Of a stretch of DNA of 29,277 bases, positions 3,013 to 29,277 are shown in pieces. Numbering within the stretch: the first letter of the stretch is position 1; every line of letters starts with the position of its first letter. This DNA is from a virus. Its lineage: Duplodnaviria; Heunggongvirae; Uroviricota; Caudoviricetes. The DNA lies in the IMG/VR virus record IMGVR_UViG_2660238524_000011; one strand, 5' to 3'. The notes under the pieces are model-generated. The model saw only the letters and a program-made list of their open reading frames with translations. It made no database searches and was not told the DNA's origin. Position numbers and translations under genes: made by a program.

Positions 3013-3543
3013 TTACTGCACATCCTGCTCAAAAGGAATTATTGAAAAATCCTCAATGTCGCTTTTAATGGAAATACCGGGAATATTTTTCACGGCCTCT
3101 TTTTCATTCAGGATAGCGTCTTTATTTATTTCCTCTTTTACACGAATAAAGCGCTCAAGCCCCAGACGTCTCAGTAATTCAATAACATTATCCGCCCCAC
3201 GGATACTGACTGATGGCGGACGGTTTCGCCACTGCACCTCGCCGGTGGTGAGGTTAGCGAACTTCACCTTCCCGTTGCCGGTCAGTTCATCACGGTGTGC
3301 CTCACACCATGTCTGAATACCGGACTGCAGTTCGGCCATGCGTTTTTTCAGGCTCTCGGTGAGCGGGGCATAACGTGCGGTGATATCGCCAATGGCGTCA
3401 TTCATTTCTGTTTCAGCCCTGACCAGTTCACGTTGTGCGTCACCGAGTAGTCTGATTCCCTCAATGACCTCTTCACGTGTCCCCGGCACCCAGAGTGCTG
3501 CTGCGGCCTTGATACGTTTTGCACCTTTTGTACTTTTTGCCAT
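3013..3543 (-). CDS. gam: Gam-like host-nuclease inhibitor (Mu Gam/Ku-like DNA end-binding protein)
   Basis: 176 aa; N-terminus MAKSTKGAKRIKAAAA and C-terminus GISIKSDIEDFSIIPFEQ closely resemble Mu Gam as I recall it. Confidence 0.8.
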   Translation of the reverse strand: MAKSTKGAKRIKAAAALWVPGTREEVIEGIRLLGDAQRELVRAETEMNDAIGDITARYAPLTESLKKRMAELQSGIQTWCEAHRDELTGNGKVKFANLTTGEVQWRNRPPSVSIRGADNVIELLRRLGLERFIRVKEEINKDAILNEKEAVKNIPGISIKSDIEDFSIIPFEQDVQ

Positions 3544-3570: not shown

Positions 3571-3840
3571 TTACCACAAAGATTCCGGCCACACGACGCG
3601 ACAGCCGTGCAGTTCGAAAACGCCCTGACGGAAATATCCCCTGTGGTCATGTCCGGTATACAGATAACAGGCCTTTCCCTGCTCAAGCATGCGCATGCAA
3701 TGCGCACTCCGGGAAACGCGGATGACAGGTTTGTTACCCCTGATGGTGATGCTTTGTACATCCGTGTTCGTCGCCTTAAGCGCCATAATGGCTGACTGCA
3801 CTTTGCTGATTTGCTGGTTGATACCTGTGGTGGATTTCAT
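3571..3840 (-). CDS. hypothetical early protein at the position of Mu kil (89 aa)
   Basis: Start lies 2 nt past the B-like stop (TAATAATG context). Function assigned by position only. Confidence 0.35.
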   Translation of the reverse strand: MKSTTGINQQISKVQSAIMALKATNTDVQSITIRGNKPVIRVSRSAHCMRMLEQGKACYLYTGHDHRGYFRQGVFELHGCRVVWPESLW

Positions 3841-3842
3841 TA

Positions 3843-5009
3843 TTAAACCCCTTTGACAACGTCAGCGTTGACCTGTGGAACCCCGATTTCAGCGGCCAGA
3901 TTCATGGCGGCTATTACCAGGTTACTGACGGCCAGCGGATACAGCAGGCTGACCATATTTTTACGGTGACTTCCCGGATTGCTCAGGCGGGCACGTATGG
4001 CATCCACTGCACCGGCGTCCATAATGTCCGTCAGCTGTTTACCGGCCCGTTGCAGTTTGAACGTCAGAAATTCTTCAAGGTTATTGTCCAGAGGCAGAAG
4101 TTCGACCACCTCACAGCGCTGAACGACTTCACGGACTTCCATATTGCGTTCAGACAGTTTTGTCGCCAGTTCCGGCTGGCCAATCAGCACGATGGACAGC
4201 AGTTTTTTGAAACCGGACTCCAGCTCAAAAAAGCGTTTGAGGTGTTTCAGTGTCGGAATGGGCAGACTGTGGGCCTCCTCAATCACCAGAACGTGGCTGA
4301 ACCCCGCCTGGCTGCTGTCTTTCAGGACGCGATGCAACTGGCGAAAACGGGCGTCCTGACTGCGTCTGATGCTTTCCAGTGGTGCGATGGTACTGATAAT
4401 GGCTTCGGCAATAGCTGCTGCCTTCAGGGTTTTCCCTTTCACATCGTTGTCTTCCATAGCGATGATGTATGGCTCGATAACAATTACCGGCGCATTCTCG
4501 CGGTTGATACGTTCAGTCAGGTCGCGGCGCAGCGTGGATTTACCCGCACCGGACTCACCGATGACGGCCATAAACCCACCATGACGGGCTGTCTGGTACA
4601 GCGCCTCACGCACGTAGCGAATGTCCGGGGTGGTGAACACATCATCAGAACCCTGCATGGCTTCGTCGGCGAACGGGTCACGGAAAAGACCAAACGCTTT
4701 TTTGGTTGCTGGAAATAACACCTGTTTTTTGAGTAACATATTCTCTTCCTCACTGAGGCTCGTTTTATCTGTGGTACCCGCTGTACGGGGCGTGGCCGCG
4801 CCCTGTACAGCATCAAAACTCTTCGTTGTATCAATCCCCTGACTTTCCAGCCAGGACGCAAGACGCCGGCGCACTTCTCCGGGGCTGGTGCGGGGCCACG
4901 CGTTATGATTCACAATCTGGGCCAGCGTGGCCTCAGAAACATCGACAGCTCTCGCCACCACCGCCTGTGGAATACGGGCCTCTTTCAGTTGCTGCTTCAG
5001 TACCAGCAT
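3843..5009 (-). CDS. transposition helper ATPase (MuB-like, AAA+ P-loop)
   Basis: Walker A VIGESGAGKST; located immediately downstream of the transposase. GAGGAGG RBS 5 nt upstream of ATG at 5009; the track start at 5048 would overlap the A gene by 29 nt. Confidence 0.7.
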   Translation of the reverse strand: MLVLKQQLKEARIPQAVVARAVDVSEATLAQIVNHNAWPRTSPGEVRRRLASWLESQGIDTTKSFDAVQGAATPRTAGTTDKTSLSEEENMLLKKQVLFPATKKAFGLFRDPFADEAMQGSDDVFTTPDIRYVREALYQTARHGGFMAVIGESGAGKSTLRRDLTERINRENAPVIVIEPYIIAMEDNDVKGKTLKAAAIAEAIISTIAPLESIRRSQDARFRQLHRVLKDSSQAGFSHVLVIEEAHSLPIPTLKHLKRFFELESGFKKLLSIVLIGQPELATKLSERNMEVREVVQRCEVVELLPLDNNLEEFLTFKLQRAGKQLTDIMDAGAVDAIRARLSNPGSHRKNMVSLLYPLAVSNLVIAAMNLAAEIGVPQVNADVVKGV

Positions 5010-12674: not shown

Positions 12675-13031
12675 ATGAGCAAAGATATAGGAGAGCGCGT
12701 TATTTCTGTGAGGAAGAAAGCAGGGTTGAACCAGAGAGAATTTGCAGCTCGTTTAGGTATTTCTAATGGTGGTATCAGTCAGATTGAAAATGGAAAGGCG
12801 ATGCCTGGAGGGGAGTTTCTGTTAAAGATGCATCAAGAGTTTAATGTTGATGTAAATTGGTTGCTCACTGGAATGAGCACAGATGGTATGACTAGAAACC
12901 AGAATCAAATTTCCCCAGAAAAACAAAAACTAATAGATACTTTTGACGACATGACACCAGACCAACAACGCTCATTTCTTGAGATTGGGCGATTCTATAC
13001 TCAGCCAAAACCAGGAAAAATCGCAGGCTGA
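12675..13031 (+). CDS. XRE-type HTH repressor (immunity repressor 2)
   Basis: HTH LNQREFAARLGISNGGISQIENG. Unrelated to repressor 1 outside the HTH core. Confidence 0.65.
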   Translation: MSKDIGERVISVRKKAGLNQREFAARLGISNGGISQIENGKAMPGGEFLLKMHQEFNVDVNWLLTGMSTDGMTRNQNQISPEKQKLIDTFDDMTPDQQRSFLEIGRFYTQPKPGKIAG

Positions 13032-13116: not shown

Positions 13117-13148
13117 ACCGGAAAGCATTGTGCTTTCCGGTTTTGTTT
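13117..13148 (+). terminator. putative intrinsic terminator
   Basis: 10-bp stem ACCGGAAAGC/GCTTTCCGGT with 5-nt loop, followed by TTTTGTTT. Downstream of repressor 2 and abutting the Dam stop codon. Confidence 0.55.
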
Positions 13149-13910
13149 CAGAAGTTGCAGATTAGCAGTTCACGGCGCGGCGTGGGTTTACCCGCCAGAC
13201 TGTAGTTGATATTCACTGTCTGTATGTTCAGTCCAGTGAACACCTCGCGCATCTGCGGGATGTCGTTCACCGAAATTATCATTTTTCCTCTGATGCACCG
13301 GGCCAGCTCTGCCAGCCGCGAGTAGTTCCCTTCAGGAAAATCCACACCATAGCCTTCCGTACCCAGGTACGGTGGGTCGCAGTAGAACAGCGTGTGCGGA
13401 CGATCATAACGCTCAATGCACTGTTGCCAGTCCATGTGTTCTATGACTGTTCTGGAAAGCCGCAGGTGTGCCGCTGACAGTTCTTCTTCAATACGTAGCA
13501 GGTTGAAGCGTGGCGGGGATGTGGTGGAGGTACCGAAGCTGTGCTCTGCCACCTTGCCGCCAAACGCCTGCTTCTGAAGGTAGTAGAACCGTGCCGCACG
13601 CTGGATATCCGTCAGTGTTTCTTCCGGGGTGATCTGCAGCCATTTGTAGATCTGACGGCTGACCAGCGCCCATTTGAACTGGCGGACAAATTCTTCCAGG
13701 TGATGCTTTACCACCCGGTACAGATTCACCAGTTCACCGTTGATATCATTGATGACTTCGATCTTGCCGGGTGTCTTAAGAAAATAGAGCGCTGCTGCCC
13801 CACAAAACGGCTCCACATAACATTCATGCGCCGGAAACAGCGGCAGAATGTGTTTTGCAAGGCGGCGTTTGCCACCAATCCACGGCACGATGGGTAATGT
13901 CTGCATTTTC
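13148..13910 (-). CDS. dam: DNA adenine methyltransferase (Dam-like, D12-class N6-MTase)
   Basis: DPPY catalytic motif (FYCDPPYLG) and N-terminal SAM-binding region (IVPWIGGKRR ... VEPFCGAAA). Track ORF trimmed to the ATG at 13910 (MKMQTLPIVPW). Confidence 0.75.
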
Positions 13911-14102
13911 ATAATCTGCAAGCCTTTTACAATTATTAAAAAATATGGCAGTCTGGTCAGGTCTCGCGAGACTGACTGAACCTTGGTCGGCTCACAGCGC
14001 ATTCCTGTGGGGCGATGACCAGCCCGGCTTTCGGGTGCCGGGCTGGTCGTTCTTTCATGATGCGGCAGGGATGGCGGGATTTCTGTTAATGTGGTTTAGG
14101 GA

Positions 14103-15425: not shown

Positions 15426-15555
15426 ATCGTATTCTCCTCTGTGAATAATTCATCGTTTATCCTGCACATCCCGTATCCCCGGCTCTCTTAACGCGCTTTA
15501 AAATCCTTCGCGCCCTGTATTTGTGATGCTGTCTCCACCAGATAAGGAGACACAC

Positions 15556-22354: not shown

Positions 22355-22813
22355 ATGGCTTCCGATAACCTGGTCAGTATCACCATTAACGATAAGTCCC
22401 TGCGCCGGAGCCTCCGTGCGCTGGATCTTGCTGCCACAGACCTGGAGCCCGCGATGCGCAAAATCGCCGGAACCCTGCTGGCGGAAACACAGTTTAACTT
22501 TCTTGATGAGGGGCGTCCGGGGTGGATGCCCTCGCTGGCAGCGGAAGAACGTGACGGGCAGACACTGCAGGATACCGGGCGTCTGATGGGGTCAGTATCA
22601 ACCGACCATGACGACCGGCAGGCTGTTGTGGGGACCAACGTTGTTTACGGTGCCATTCACCAGTTCGGGGGTAAAACGGGGCGTAATGAGTCTGTTGAAC
22701 TTCCGGCCCGCCCGTTCCTGCCGGTGACGGGGGATGGAGAACTACAGCCTGAAGTGGTAATCCCCATCCTCGATACCATTGTCCGCCATCTTGAATCAGC
22801 GGCCCGTCGCTGA
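22355..22813 (+). CDS. virion morphogenesis protein (Mu G-like)
   Basis: 152 aa at the position of Mu G. Confidence 0.55.
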   Translation: MASDNLVSITINDKSLRRSLRALDLAATDLEPAMRKIAGTLLAETQFNFLDEGRPGWMPSLAAEERDGQTLQDTGRLMGSVSTDHDDRQAVVGTNVVYGAIHQFGGKTGRNESVELPARPFLPVTGDGELQPEVVIPILDTIVRHLESAARR

Positions 22814-22855: not shown

Positions 22856-22900
22856 GAGGGGCTGTATTACCTTTATAAAGGCTTTACAGCCTCTGTTTTA
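22856..22900 (+). other. nested palindromic hairpin in the G-I intergenic region (possible terminator or regulatory site)
   Basis: GCTGTA ... TACAGC arms enclosing the perfect 12-bp palindrome CCTTTATAAAGG (22870-22881), followed by TGTTTTAT. Confidence 0.3.
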
Positions 22901-23027
22901 TAACCGCCTCCGGTTCACCGCATTGCTTTCCCTGTCCTTCTCCCCTGATGTTTTCTAAAGCAGATTAAAATCGCCGGGCCTGCATTTCTCACAAACTGTC
23001 TCCGACAACATAACGCGGGACAGCAAA

Positions 23028-24143
23028 ATGTCAGCCATTCACATTTTTAAAGCCGGTACTCATACCGATATGCACGGCAAAAAACTGCCGTTCACGCCAG
23101 ACGATCTTGCCGCCTGCGTGAAAGCCTATGACCCGTCCGTCCATGAAGCACCACTCGTGATTGGTCATCCCAGAACGGAAGACCCGGCGTGGGGCTGGGT
23201 GAAAGCCCTGTCGCTCAGCGGCGTCGATCTGATGGCAGAGCCTGCCCAGCTGGACCCGCAGTTTGCTGAGATGGTCACCGACGGACGATTCAAAAAAGTG
23301 TCCGCCTCTTTCTACCTCCCGGATTCACCGTCCAATCCGAAGCCCGGCGTGCTCTACCTTCGCCATGTGGGCTTTCTCGGGGCACAGCCACCTTCCGTCA
23401 AGGGGCTGAAACAGGTGTCCTTCAGTGAGCAGGAAGAAGGTGTGGTGGAGTTCGCCGACTGGCAGGCCATCACGAATGCCTCCCTGTGGGGAAAGCTGCG
23501 CGATTTTCTGATCGCCCGCTTCAGTCTGGACGAGGCAGAAAAAGTCCTGCCGGAATGGCAGCTCAACAGTCTGCGCGAAGAGGCGTACCGCGACACACTG
23601 TCGCAGGATGCAGCAGGTGCACAATTCAGTGAGACAGGCCCGGGGCCGTCTTCCGCAAGTAACGAGGAATCATCGATGACAAAAGAAGAGATTGAAGCCC
23701 TTCAGGAGGAGAACCGCCGCCTGAAGCAGCAGGCTGCTGATCGCGATGCGCGTGATGCACAGGTCAGACAGGAGCAACTGCATAAGGACAATGTGGCCTT
23801 TGCAGAAAAACTGGTCGCAGAGGGCCGTCTGGCTCCCCGCGCCTCCTCCGTGGTGGTTGCCCTGCTGGATGCCGTCGCCGGTGGCGACAAGCCGGTGGAG
23901 TTTGCTGAGGGGGAAAGCCGCACACCGCTGGCCACCGCCTTTCGTTCATTGCTCTCCGACGGGGAGCCGGTGATGAATTTCGCCGAACAGGCCACAAAAG
24001 AGCGTGTCGGCGACACGGTGAAGGTGGATGTGGCAGAGTTTGCGGAAGCCGATCCTGAGCGTCTGGCCCTGCATCAGAAAGCAGTGGCCCTGTCCAAAAA
24101 AGAAGGCATCAGCTATGAGGCTGCTGTCGCACGCTGCCTGTAA
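23028..24143 (+). CDS. head protease/scaffold protein (Mu I-like)
   Basis: 371 aa; N-terminal domain followed by a charged coiled-coil C-terminal part; immediately upstream of the major capsid gene. Confidence 0.65.
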   Translation: MSAIHIFKAGTHTDMHGKKLPFTPDDLAACVKAYDPSVHEAPLVIGHPRTEDPAWGWVKALSLSGVDLMAEPAQLDPQFAEMVTDGRFKKVSASFYLPDSPSNPKPGVLYLRHVGFLGAQPPSVKGLKQVSFSEQEEGVVEFADWQAITNASLWGKLRDFLIARFSLDEAEKVLPEWQLNSLREEAYRDTLSQDAAGAQFSETGPGPSSASNEESSMTKEEIEALQEENRRLKQQAADRDARDAQVRQEQLHKDNVAFAEKLVAEGRLAPRASSVVVALLDAVAGGDKPVEFAEGESRTPLATAFRSLLSDGEPVMNFAEQATKERVGDTVKVDVAEFAEADPERLALHQKAVALSKKEGISYEAAVARCL

Positions 24144-26371: not shown

Positions 26372-26622
26372 TGAAAGAATACCGCTATTCCGGCCCGGCC
26401 AGCGGCGTCACGCTGTCGGACGGAACCGAAATCCTGCTCTGGCCGGGGAAGACGGTTTCCCTGCCGGAGGAGCATGACTACGTGAAGGTACTGGTGGCGC
26501 TGAAACATCTGACGCCGGTACCTGAAGAGACTAAACCCGCCGGCACACCGGCTGTGCAGTCACCAAAGCGCAGAAGCAGCAGTGACAGCGAAGTGAAAAC
26601 GGAGGACACCCATGGCAGCTAA
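26368..26622 (+). CDS. small late protein (84 aa)
   Basis: Translationally coupled between the gp37-like and sheath genes. Confidence 0.4.
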   Translation: MMKEYRYSGPASGVTLSDGTEILLWPGKTVSLPEEHDYVKVLVALKHLTPVPEETKPAGTPAVQSPKRRSSSDSEVKTEDTHGS

Positions 26623-28039
26623 CTATCTGCATGGTCCCGAAACCATTGAGGTGGAAAACGGTGCCCGCCCGGTTAAAACGGTGAAATCTGCCGTTATTGG
26701 CCTGATTGGTACCGCCCCGATGGGGGATGTCAATACGCTGGTACAGTGCCTGTCTGAGAAAGACGCAGCGGCATTTGGCAGCCAGTTCACCGGCTTTACC
26801 ATTCCGCAGGCGCTGGATGCGATTTATGACCATGGTGCAGGCACCGTTCTGGTCATTAACGTCCTCGACCCGGCGAAACATAAAACGGCGATCGAGGATG
26901 AGGTGGTTACCTTTGACAAATCGACAGGGCAGGCCAGACTGGCGCATCCGGTTGTCGCTAATGTGGTGGTGAAAAACAGTGAAGGCAGCACCACCCACAC
27001 GGCGAACACGGACTACCGTGTTGATGCGCAGGCGGGTGTGCTCACGAACCTGGGCAAGGCTATTGAGGCCGGTGGCAGCGTGAAGGTGAGCTATGAGTAC
27101 GCGGACCCGTCGAAGGTGACTGCGGCGGACATCATCGGCGGGGTGAACAGCGCCGGAAACCGAACCGGCATGAAGCTGCTTAACGACAGCTTCAACCTGT
27201 ACGGCTATTTCGCCAAAATTCTGATTGCGCCGGTGTTCTGCACCCAGAAGAGTGTCGCAGTTGAGCTTATCGCCATGGCAGAGAAGCTGGGCGCGGTAAC
27301 CTACATTGATGCGCCTGTCGGTACCACCTTTGCACAGGCTCTGGCAGGTCGTGGCCCGGAAGGCACCATCAACTTCAATACCAGCTCCGACCGCGTCCGT
27401 CTGTGCTATCCGCATGTGAAGGTATATGACCCGGTGACAAACACAGAGCGTCTGGAGCCGCTCAGCCAGCGTGCAGCAGGTCTGCGTGCCAGAGTCGATC
27501 TGGACAAGGGCTACTGGTGGTCATCCTCCAATCAGGAGATTCTGGGGATCACCGGCGTGGAGCGCCAGCTGTCCGCGATGATTGATGACCCGCAGAGTGA
27601 GGTGAACCTGCTTAACGAACAGGGGATCACCACGGTATTCAGCAGTTACGGCAGCGGCCTTCGTCTGTGGGGTAACCGGACGGCAGCATGGCCAACGGTC
27701 ACCCATATGCGTAACTTTGAGAACGTTCGCCGCACCGGTGATGTGATCAACGAGTCCATTCGTTATTTCAGCCAGCAGTACATCGACATGCCGATTACTC
27801 AGGCGCTGATTGATGCACTGACGGAGTCGGTCAACGCCTACGGTCGCAAAATGACTGGTGATGGTGCGGTACTGGGCTTCCGTTGCTGGTTTGATCCGGC
27901 CCGCAATCCGGAGACGGAGCTGGCCGCCGGGCACCTGTTGCTGAGCTACAAATATACGCCACCACCGCCGCTGGAGCGACTGACGTTTGAGACTGAGATC
28001 ACCTCGGAATACCTGTTAACCCTGAAAGGGGGCAACTGA
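26612..28039 (+). CDS. contractile tail sheath protein (Mu L-like)
   Basis: 475 aa directly upstream of the tube gene. Confidence 0.8.
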   Translation: MAANYLHGPETIEVENGARPVKTVKSAVIGLIGTAPMGDVNTLVQCLSEKDAAAFGSQFTGFTIPQALDAIYDHGAGTVLVINVLDPAKHKTAIEDEVVTFDKSTGQARLAHPVVANVVVKNSEGSTTHTANTDYRVDAQAGVLTNLGKAIEAGGSVKVSYEYADPSKVTAADIIGGVNSAGNRTGMKLLNDSFNLYGYFAKILIAPVFCTQKSVAVELIAMAEKLGAVTYIDAPVGTTFAQALAGRGPEGTINFNTSSDRVRLCYPHVKVYDPVTNTERLEPLSQRAAGLRARVDLDKGYWWSSSNQEILGITGVERQLSAMIDDPQSEVNLLNEQGITTVFSSYGSGLRLWGNRTAAWPTVTHMRNFENVRRTGDVINESIRYFSQQYIDMPITQALIDALTESVNAYGRKMTGDGAVLGFRCWFDPARNPETELAAGHLLLSYKYTPPPPLERLTFETEITSEYLLTLKGGN

Positions 28040-28560
28040 TGTCAAAGATTGAGATAAACCGCATCACGAATGCCAACATCTATCTGGATGGTACTAACCT
28101 GCTGGGACGGGCTGAGGAAGTTAAACTCCCCGATGTCTCCATGATTATGCAGGAACACAAGGCGCTGGGGATGGTGGGTAAGGTGGAACTCCCGGCTGGT
28201 TTTGACAAACTGGAAGGCGAAATCAAATGGAACAGCTTTTACCGCGATGCGATGCTGTCTGCCGCGAACCCGTACAGGTCGCTGGCACTGCAGTGTCGTT
28301 CCAGCGTCCAGCGCTACAGCTCGCAGGGGCTGATTGACGAAATCCCGCTGGTCACCTTCCTGACGATTATGTTCAAGAAGAACCCGCTGGGGACGTTCAA
28401 ACAGCACGAGAACGCCGAGTTCTCCAGTAGCTTCACCTGCACGTATATCAGACAGGTACTGGATGGTGAAGAGCTGCTGCAACTGGACTATCTGGCCAAC
28501 ATCTTCCGGGTCGGCGGTGTTGATCAACTGACTGACTACCGTATCAATATCGGGGGCTGA
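28039..28560 (+). CDS. tail tube protein (Mu M-like)
   Basis: 173 aa immediately after the sheath gene with overlapping stop/start. Confidence 0.75.
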   Translation: MSKIEINRITNANIYLDGTNLLGRAEEVKLPDVSMIMQEHKALGMVGKVELPAGFDKLEGEIKWNSFYRDAMLSAANPYRSLALQCRSSVQRYSSQGLIDEIPLVTFLTIMFKKNPLGTFKQHENAEFSSSFTCTYIRQVLDGEELLQLDYLANIFRVGGVDQLTDYRINIGG

Positions 28561-28562
28561 CG

Positions 28563-28844
28563 GTGAGTGTTGAACTGACGGATAAAGGAGGACGATGTGC
28601 GGCACTGGGCATGTCAAATGGTACGTGGTTTACCCTCCTTGATATTCCGGGGGTGGAAACCCTTTTTAATACCCGTAAAACCAATGACCCGATTGACTGC
28701 ACACGTTCAAAGGCCCGCAAACTGGCGGATTTGATTGAAGCATGGGAGCCTCCCGACCACTGGTTCTCCGGCATCGGCAAATCTGAGGGAAAGACGCTTC
28801 TCATCGCTTTCCTGCGTAACTGCAAGGGGTTTCGCACTTGCTGA
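28563..28844 (+). CDS. hypothetical small protein (93 aa), possible moron
   Basis: GTG start at 28563 preceded by GGGGG. Cys-containing product with no recognisable structural role, followed by a terminator-like hairpin. Confidence 0.35.
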   Translation: MSVELTDKGGRCAALGMSNGTWFTLLDIPGVETLFNTRKTNDPIDCTRSKARKLADLIEAWEPPDHWFSGIGKSEGKTLLIAFLRNCKGFRTC

Positions 28845-28851
28845 CATCACA

Positions 28852-28876
28852 GGGGCTCCGGCCCCTTCTTCTTAAT
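28852..28876 (+). terminator. putative intrinsic terminator
   Basis: GGGGC-tccg-GCCCC hairpin followed by TTCTTCTT, directly after the 93-aa ORF. Confidence 0.4.
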
Positions 28877-28941
28877 CTCCTTTAATATCCGTCACGCGCT
28901 TCTCCCGACATACTGCCCTGAACTTACACAGGAGCACAATC

Positions 28942-29277
28942 ATGTCACAGACCCCATCCGATACTTTTAAATTGTCTTATCCCTTCACCACTGCTGCAGG
29001 CACCAGAATTGAGCTGGTTGAACTGAAACGCCTGACGGTAAAAGACCTGAAGCAGGTGCGCAAAATCAGCAAAAACCCGGCAGACTGGGACGAACCGCTG
29101 ATTGCCCGCAGTACTGGTCTTCTCCCGGAGGATCTCGACAATATGGATCTGGCTGATTACCTGCAGTTACAGAAACGATTTCAGCTCATCACGGGGATGG
29201 GTGAGAGCAACCAGGGCGCTGACGCAGGCGCAGGGGCTGCTGGCGAGATGGTTCCGGTTTCAGCCGGGGGAGATTGA
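28942..29277 (+). CDS. tail assembly chaperone (gpE/gpG-like)
   Basis: 111 aa with AGGAG RBS, located after the tube gene and before the expected tape-measure gene. Confidence 0.55.
   Translation: MSQTPSDTFKLSYPFTTAAGTRIELVELKRLTVKDLKQVRKISKNPADWDEPLIARSTGLLPEDLDNMDLADYLQLQKRFQLITGMGESNQGADAGAGAAGEMVPVSAGGD

Follow-up and report, generated by a model that had tools for sequence, protein, structure and literature searches.

What is a small open reading frame (ORF) doing between the tail tube and tail assembly chaperone genes of a temperate phage, and does the hairpin that follows it belong to the ORF or to the phage? The locus lies in virus record IMGVR_UViG_2660238524_000011, a stretch of 29,277 nucleotides (nt) referred to here as the window, which is a BcepMu-like transposable prophage of Escherichia coli. 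An earlier note on this DNA had described the ORF, of 93 amino acids (aa) and hereafter called ORF93, as a moron with its own terminator and a suggested function in lysogenic conversion or defence. We find instead that ORF93 is an accessory gene of the ordinary kind, seated at a hot spot for insertions, and that the hairpin is a piece of the phage backbone. The junction is laid out as follows:

26612-28039 (+): tail sheath gene.
28039-28560 (+): tail tube gene, P2 FII-like (Pfam Phage_tube, E 2.9e-53), ending in the stop codon TGA (28558-28560); the upstream anchor of the junction.
28552-28556 (+): Shine-Dalgarno-like GGGGG run, read from the sequence, within the 3' end of the tube gene and 6 nt before the ORF93 GTG.
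28563-28844 (+): ORF93, the 93-aa accessory gene with a GTG start, of the DUF7739 / PHROG 1239 family (from profile matches and substitution rates).
28851-28876 (+): intrinsic-terminator-like hairpin with a T-rich tail (from a terminator scan, folding and conserved position).
28879-28914 (+): intergenic block consisting of CCTTTAATATCC (28879-28890), 18 nt and then CATACT (28909-28914), conserved in insert-bearing and empty loci.
28942-29277 (+): gpE-like tail assembly chaperone gene (Pfam Phage_TAC_7, E 5.5e-21), the downstream anchor of the junction.

On re-reading the sequence, the description of a cysteine-containing, 93-aa ORF between these two genes with a hairpin behind it proved accurate, coordinates included: the Pfam matches confirm the identity of both neighbours, and ORF93 contains four cysteines. 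Its start codon lies 2 nt past the tube stop. Over 1.4 kb (27900-29277) the window is 100% identical to Escherichia phage PhiKM (Bcepmuvirus), as is the tube protein to the PhiKM tube, and the PhiKM-type element combines P2-like tail genes with Mu-like head genes. The junction with ORF93 is carried by 629 of 5426 complete E. coli genomes (~12%), strains of sequence type 131 (ST131) among them. A literature search on PhiKM returned unrelated papers only, and a paper on Burkholderia prophages (PMC2920897) does not discuss the tube/chaperone junction.

Judged by its pattern of substitution, ORF93 is a real coding gene under purifying selection. Compared with seven orthologues in the same genomic position, the ratio of nonsynonymous to synonymous substitution rates (dN/dS) is 0.07-0.14. 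The position of the start codon is kept among the orthologues as GTG or ATG, and no comparable conservation was seen in the remaining frames and on the opposite strand of the region. An alignment of 51 sequences, reaching down to 39% identity, contains six invariant columns (N19, W22, F83, C87, G89 and F90) and an almost invariant W-x-P-P-x-x-W loop; among the cysteines of ORF93 (C12, C46, C87 and C93), only C87 is invariant across the family.

Profile comparisons place ORF93, as a slightly divergent new member, in the already catalogued DUF7739 family. The match to PHROG 1239 (E 4.7e-48) covers residues 1-93 of ORF93 and positions 1-96 of the 96 in the profile. The match to Pfam DUF7739 (PF24881) is weak (24.7 bits, E 3.5e-5, residues 12-67 only) and falls below the Pfam gathering threshold of 27 bits; a cluster representative 98% identical to ORF93 (P0001) has a precomputed PF24881 match. 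Furthermore, a profile built from ORF93 and a few relatives collects 170 homologues, most of them annotated as DUF7739, and recovers annotated members at E ~1e-40. The homologues are stand-alone phage proteins of 92-102 aa from Enterobacterales, Plesiomonas or Vibrio, and we regard the family as narrow because an exhaustive hidden Markov model search of 1.84 billion representatives found only 86 clusters. The homology between ORF93 and gene 22 of Shigella phage Sf6 (DUF7739 / PHROG 1239) spans the full length, and the invariant residues and the loop are common to both; the ORF93 subgroup has a C-terminal KGFRT, whereas other members have NGFR. No match was found in an NCBIfam search with ORF93, and no papers in a literature search on DUF7739, PHROG 1239 or Yersinia phage fHe-Yen8-01.

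Two side observations concern the family and its coding sequence. Three products of 153-154 aa (P0053, P0065 and P0066) join DUF2737 and DUF7739, and the corresponding Sf6 genes 23 and 22 are adjacent and overlapping; such products may be real fusions or merged calls of neighbouring genes. Within ORF93, the codons for WFT-LDIPGVE-LFN (window 28627-28670) form a hairpin followed by CTTTTTAAT, likewise in loci L002, L014-L016, L018 and L019. This intragenic terminator-like structure reaches -17 kcal/mol in KP12-type copies and may be coincidental to the protein sequence.

The distribution of ORF93 among relatives was assessed at 84 tube-to-chaperone junctions, comprising 80 loci from other species collected via tube protein alignment, earlier phage records and the window. 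DUF7739 is found at 24 of the 84, and most of the others are empty (gap 35-160 nt) or hold different cargo. The junction is empty in every beta-proteobacterial relative (BcepMu, Ralstonia, Chromobacterium, Pandoraea and others) and, closer to the window, in Erwinia tracheiphila, Xenorhabdus, Brenneria and several Pectobacterium prophages. Relatives with a 91-94% identical tube lack ORF93 (L023, L028 and L032 are empty), including the E. tracheiphila locus (L023), where a tube of 94% identity is followed by a 128-nt gap. Some copies have decayed: the one in Mixta mediterraneensis (L018) stops prematurely at 60 aa, those in five Photorhabdus loci are truncated, and only a fragment is left in Apirhabdus (L024). 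The GC content at third codon positions (GC3) is 0.54 in ORF93 vs 0.68-0.70 in sheath and tube.

From this pattern ORF93 is optional cargo, probably mobile and dispensable, and not a tail component: podoviruses, which lack a tube, have homologues of it, and phages whose tube is almost identical do without it. The presence/absence comparison proposed in the earlier note accordingly went its way: the insert is variably present and differs from its flanks in GC3, and a structural tail gene conserved among relatives is not what the 91-94% identical tubes show. In one locus, from Pantoea stewartii (L021), a 319-aa ORF resembling an insertion sequence (IS) transposase of the IS4 type (3632-4591) is inserted directly downstream of the DUF7739 gene, extending the tube/chaperone gap to 1966 nt and displacing the hairpin.

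The hairpin itself is AGGGGC-tccg-GCCCCT (28851-28866) followed by the T-rich TCTTCTTAAT (28867-28876), that is a 6-bp stem and a tetraloop (-12.8 kcal/mol, z -2.2) with an interrupted T-run. A terminator scan of 5.3 kb returned 6 terminator-like sites vs 4.0 +/- 1.7 expected, and the hairpin alone is not above chance; we take it as real because its position is conserved in dozens of related prophages. With its GC stem-loop, U-run and conserved operon-end position, 28851-28876 has the sequence features of an intrinsic (rho-independent) terminator. An Rfam search of the region at E up to 1 gave no known RNA element.

Equivalent hairpins stand at junctions without the insert. In BcepMu, GGCCCGC-ttcg-GCGGGCC and TTTTTT lie 29 nt past the tube stop with no ORF between, and Ralstonia phage YO107_2 and E. 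coli phage ECO95 1-6-1 have equivalents, the ECO95 version (GGGGC-tacg-GCCCC) nearly matching the window; Erwinia and Xenorhabdus also carry the hairpin without ORF93. When filled and empty junctions are aligned as DNA, the hairpin and the ~75 nt up to the chaperone start are conserved, and the insert corresponds almost exactly to ORF93. At no fewer than 57 of the 84 junctions, the hairpin with the greatest local stability is found 50-105 nt before the chaperone start. At KP12-type loci the intragenic hairpin outscored the backbone one, and a perfect-stem scan still finds the latter, except in the IS-disrupted L021. Read from these alignments, the hairpin terminator is a backbone element that predates ORF93, and ORF93 was inserted upstream of it. 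The "own terminator" of the earlier note has to be given up, as the same hairpin, equally far from the chaperone gene, is found where there is no insert.

How, then, would ORF93 be expressed? A scan limited to the sigma-70 consensus found no sigma-70-like promoter near 28563 at its threshold. Because no promoter-like site precedes it, ORF93 reads as the last cistron of the late head/sheath/tube transcript, probably coupled to tube translation, as the GGGGG run and the 2-nt spacing suggest. Beyond the hairpin, the block CCTTTAATATCC-18 nt-CATACT is conserved between empty and filled loci, and the post-hairpin block aligns gap-free with the sequences that precede the holin gene (15523) and a 371-aa head-module ORF (23028). 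The three late-operon starts (15523, 23028 and 28942) share a motif of roughly T-TAA-N5-TTAAAATC, followed after ~20 nt by CTG-C, at these sites in the window:

15487-15506: shared late motif.
~22960-22975: shared late motif.
28870-28890: shared late motif.

A strong hairpin (-20 kcal/mol, z -3.0) with a T-run lies at 22857-22894, past an ORF that ends at 22813 and ahead of the 23028 ORF, and the layout of a terminator followed by a promoter-like block is common to the 22857-23028 region and the tube/chaperone junction. We infer that the three shared-motif regions are candidate activator-dependent late promoters or late-activator sites, and that the post-hairpin block is a candidate late promoter of the chaperone/tape-measure operon. 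Phage Mu has several C-dependent late promoters. The candidates in the window resemble that set, and PhiKM annotates a C homologue. Under this model, a late transcript would run from ~23000 to the hairpin at 28866 with ORF93 as its last cistron; the conserved hairpin would end the tube operon, and the chaperone gene would begin ~75 nt further on, behind its late-promoter-like block. Such an operon boundary would tolerate insertions and has become a cargo hot spot, with ORF93 placed between the tube stop and the backbone terminator. ORF93 would then be made late, with the head, sheath and tube genes, and not independently from the repressed prophage.

Comparison of the junctions shows the tube/chaperone operon boundary of BcepMu-like phages to be a true cargo hot spot. 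Four small cargo arrangements are seen, all between the tube stop and the hairpin:

DUF7739 alone.
Phage_gp49_66 with DUF7739.
A 66-aa Pectobacterium ORF.
A cysteine-less ferredoxin-like (Fer2-like) ORF.

Phage_gp49_66 (the N4 gp49 / Sf6 gene 66 family, 97-99 aa) lies between tube and DUF7739 in six loci, one E. coli genome included (L010 1663-1956; L014, L015 and L017 3019-3318), and both members of this pair have homologues in Sf6 accessory regions. The Fer2-like ORF is a 110-aa plant-type ferredoxin-like ORF of Pectobacterium (L049, L050, L051, L054, L056 and L059, ~3037-3369; Pfam Fer2, 21.6 bits), upstream of the backbone hairpin and, by reading of its sequence, without the cluster-binding cysteines (SSRAGADPSSAA). 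BcepMu-like prophages from Neisseriaceae, Iodobacter and Chromobacterium hold large cargo at the junction:

L076, 3096-4343: CdiA-CT RNase A toxin and CdiI_2 immunity gene.
L085, 3185-5041: DUF4145 and HEPN-like protein.
L071, 773-2967 (-): PAAR protein and neighbouring unannotated ORFs.

L076 and L071 retain a hairpin beside the tube stop, with the large cargo downstream of it, and in L085 there are hairpins on both sides of the cargo. The CdiA-CT/CdiI_2 pair occurs at the junction only in L076, an unrelated locus. Two further inserts were noted. Loci L045, L046, L048 and L055 (Lonsdalea), with gaps of 362-417 nt, contain GC-rich inserted DNA in which no conserved ORF is credible and which may be a non-coding or repeat element, and Pseudomonas phage Komp_PAO1_1 (L007) has an unannotated 63-aa ORF (3115-3306, minus strand) in a 384-nt gap, downstream of the hairpin.

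Outside these junctions, DUF7739 genes are found beside erf, ssb and abc2 in the early-left operon (Sf6 gene 22, CUS-3 and HK75), near rdgC, SSB and integrase genes (Edwardsiella phage EPP-1, with rdgC and int, and metagenomic lambdoid phages), and in phages of ~90-100 kb; the lambdoid members sit among recombination and anti-nuclease genes. ORF93 differs from the Sf6 gene 22-type members in lying in the late tail operon of a Mu-like myovirus. Every context found is nevertheless a lytic-cycle operon, and the lambdoid/P22-like early-left operons are repressed in lysogens. No conserved partner gene of DUF7739 was found across contexts, the upstream Phage_gp49_66 being present in its six loci only. 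The lytic-cycle contexts, together with the lack of any match of ORF93 to PADLOC defence-system models at E up to 1, argue against lysogenic conversion or defence, and the role that the earlier note had proposed is left unsupported.

The protein offers some indications of what it might do. An AlphaFold2 model of ORF93 (predicted local distance difference test score, pLDDT, 91; predicted template modelling score, pTM, 0.82) has two strands at the N terminus, three helices and a strand at the C terminus; the protein lacks transmembrane segments and has an isoelectric point (pI) of 8.4 and a net charge of +1.6, and the median pI of the family is 7.9. Foldseek searches with the model found nothing significant in the PDB and only unnamed viral proteins in BFVD, and PDB sequences, searched with a profile at E up to 10, yielded no match. 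Neisseria DMP12 (PDB 3w1o), the CdiI of B. pseudomallei E479 (5j4a) and E. coli YfbM (1ryl) are 6-12% identical to ORF93, with Foldseek scores that are not significant. A DMP12-like DNA mimic was rejected on the pI and charge of ORF93 and on a family that is not acidic. A CdiI-type immunity protein was likewise set aside, as the neighbours of ORF93 are tube and chaperone, with no toxin gene beside it. As a small soluble alpha/beta domain, ORF93 might bind a host protein in a function of the host-takeover or counter-defence type; that it is a small binder which, in lytic growth, neutralises a host protein or modulates it is a possibility we raise tentatively.

Several other explanations of ORF93 compete with a role of this kind. 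Its small size, GTG start and decay in some lineages could be those of a chance ORF or a dead remnant without function, but the conservation data rule this out and leave it practically no probability: dN/dS is 0.07-0.14, length and the six invariant columns are kept over the 51 sequences, and the fold is confidently predicted. As a gene that lies between tube and chaperone and seems to be translationally coupled to the tube, ORF93 could be a tail assembly or structural accessory of this tail, for example a tube-associated factor. We consider that very improbable. The presence/absence pattern, with the gene missing beside 91-94% identical tubes and decayed or truncated elsewhere, largely rules out a structural tail role, homologues occur in podoviruses without a tube and in early operons, and neither Pfam nor PHROG gives ORF93 a tail-related annotation.

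A classical moron, expressed from the repressed prophage and endowing its lysogen with a trait of conversion, exclusion or anti-phage defence, would account for variable presence between conserved tail genes and for a GC3 unlike that of the flanks; the same junction holds toxin/immunity and HEPN-type cargo in other relatives, and the prophage is common, as the 629 E. coli genomes attest. We nonetheless judge it unlikely, since ORF93 starts 2 nt past the tube stop with no promoter-like site, its terminator is a backbone element, PADLOC gives no match, the lambdoid and P22-like family members are in operons repressed in lysogens, and the defence-like cargos at the junction, unlike ORF93, lie downstream of the hairpin. 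What survives of the term "moron" is the variably present insert between conserved genes; a terminator of its own does not, and the sigma-70 scan showed no promoter of its own. Alternatively, ORF93 might be a virion-associated accessory protein, made late with sheath and tube, bound to the particle or packaged in it, and delivered to the next host or acting there. Its place upstream of the terminator, on the transcript of the most abundant structural genes, agrees with this, and the homologue in fHe-Yen8-01 (gp123; P0084) is annotated as "particle associated protein" and surrounded by others of that kind, with a DNA methyltransferase and an ADP-ribosyltransferase in their number. The annotation is not traceable to a paper, however, and sensitive virion mass spectrometry often detects non-structural proteins; the homologues in P22-like and lambdoid phages are early genes, and close relatives build tails without ORF93. 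This, too, we would not expect to be the case.

The explanation that we lean towards, with some reserve, is that of a DUF7739 cargo gene at the hot spot, which would be expressed late and act on a host protein in lytic growth. Several points weigh against it. The "particle associated" annotation of gp123 is one. The family is not acidic, so that the DNA-mimic mechanism of DMP12, the best fold match, is not transferable; the promoter scan covered the sigma-70 consensus only, and a weak promoter inside the tube gene is possible; and a timing that is late in the window and early in lambdoid phages is odd for a single conserved role. In its widest form, the proposal would make DUF7739 a family of small host-protein inhibitors (counter-defence or takeover) that moves among podo-, sipho- and myovirus temperate phages of Enterobacterales, and the junction an undescribed hot spot, where add-ons to the end of the operon enter upstream of the terminator and autonomous units (CdiA-CT/CdiI, DUF4145 with HEPN, PAAR clusters) downstream of it. 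We hold this wider form to be speculative and rather doubtful.

Taken by itself, ORF93 is a modest finding, since its domain of unknown function was already catalogued and it lies in the sort of place where such genes are expected. It concerns, on the other hand, a gene of an uncharacterised family that has spread with the prophage in ~12% of complete E. coli genomes. Since the terminator belongs to the backbone, expression would be expected late with the tail genes and not from the prophage, and this altered expectation changes which experiments make sense. The hot spot, with its toxin/immunity and HEPN-type genes, could be mined further.

Some observations concern the rest of the window and the records compared with it. 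A D12-class N6-adenine DNA methyltransferase gene (13148-14002, minus strand) lies beside an HTH_3 / CI-repressor-like gene (12675-13031, plus strand), and the pair is placed between the early region and the lysis cassette (holin 15523, SLT transglycosylase 15909). An 8.2-kb contig labelled "Arthrobacter sp. GMC3" (L013, NZ_PJIO01000028.1) has a tube 100% and an ORF93 98% identical to those of the window prophage, and is probably a contamination of that assembly. The record of Klebsiella phage KP12 clone KP12_2 (L002, OM835952.1) has a BcepMu-like prophage-type genome, though it is classified under Vequintavirinae; it is probably a co-purified induced prophage under a wrong taxon.

Two further groups of known systems are close to this locus. 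The first is that of the morons of lambdoid phages of the HK97/HK022 type, and ORF93 is like them in being an extra gene between conserved late genes, variable in presence and unlike its flanks in composition. A classical moron brings a promoter and a terminator with it and is expressed from the prophage, whereas at ORF93 no promoter was found and the terminator, a backbone element, predates the insert. The hot spot is a more interesting result than ORF93 itself, and such hot spots are already known in other phage groups: Mu-like Pseudomonas phages are said to have accessory or anti-defence loci within their structural regions, and P2-like phages to have defence hot spots. An anti-defence role of DUF7739 is only hypothesised, and in this the junction is unlike those loci. 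It shares with them a fixed site in a conserved module and interchangeable small cargo, and it differs in its position, at the tube/chaperone boundary, and in the set of cargo that it holds.
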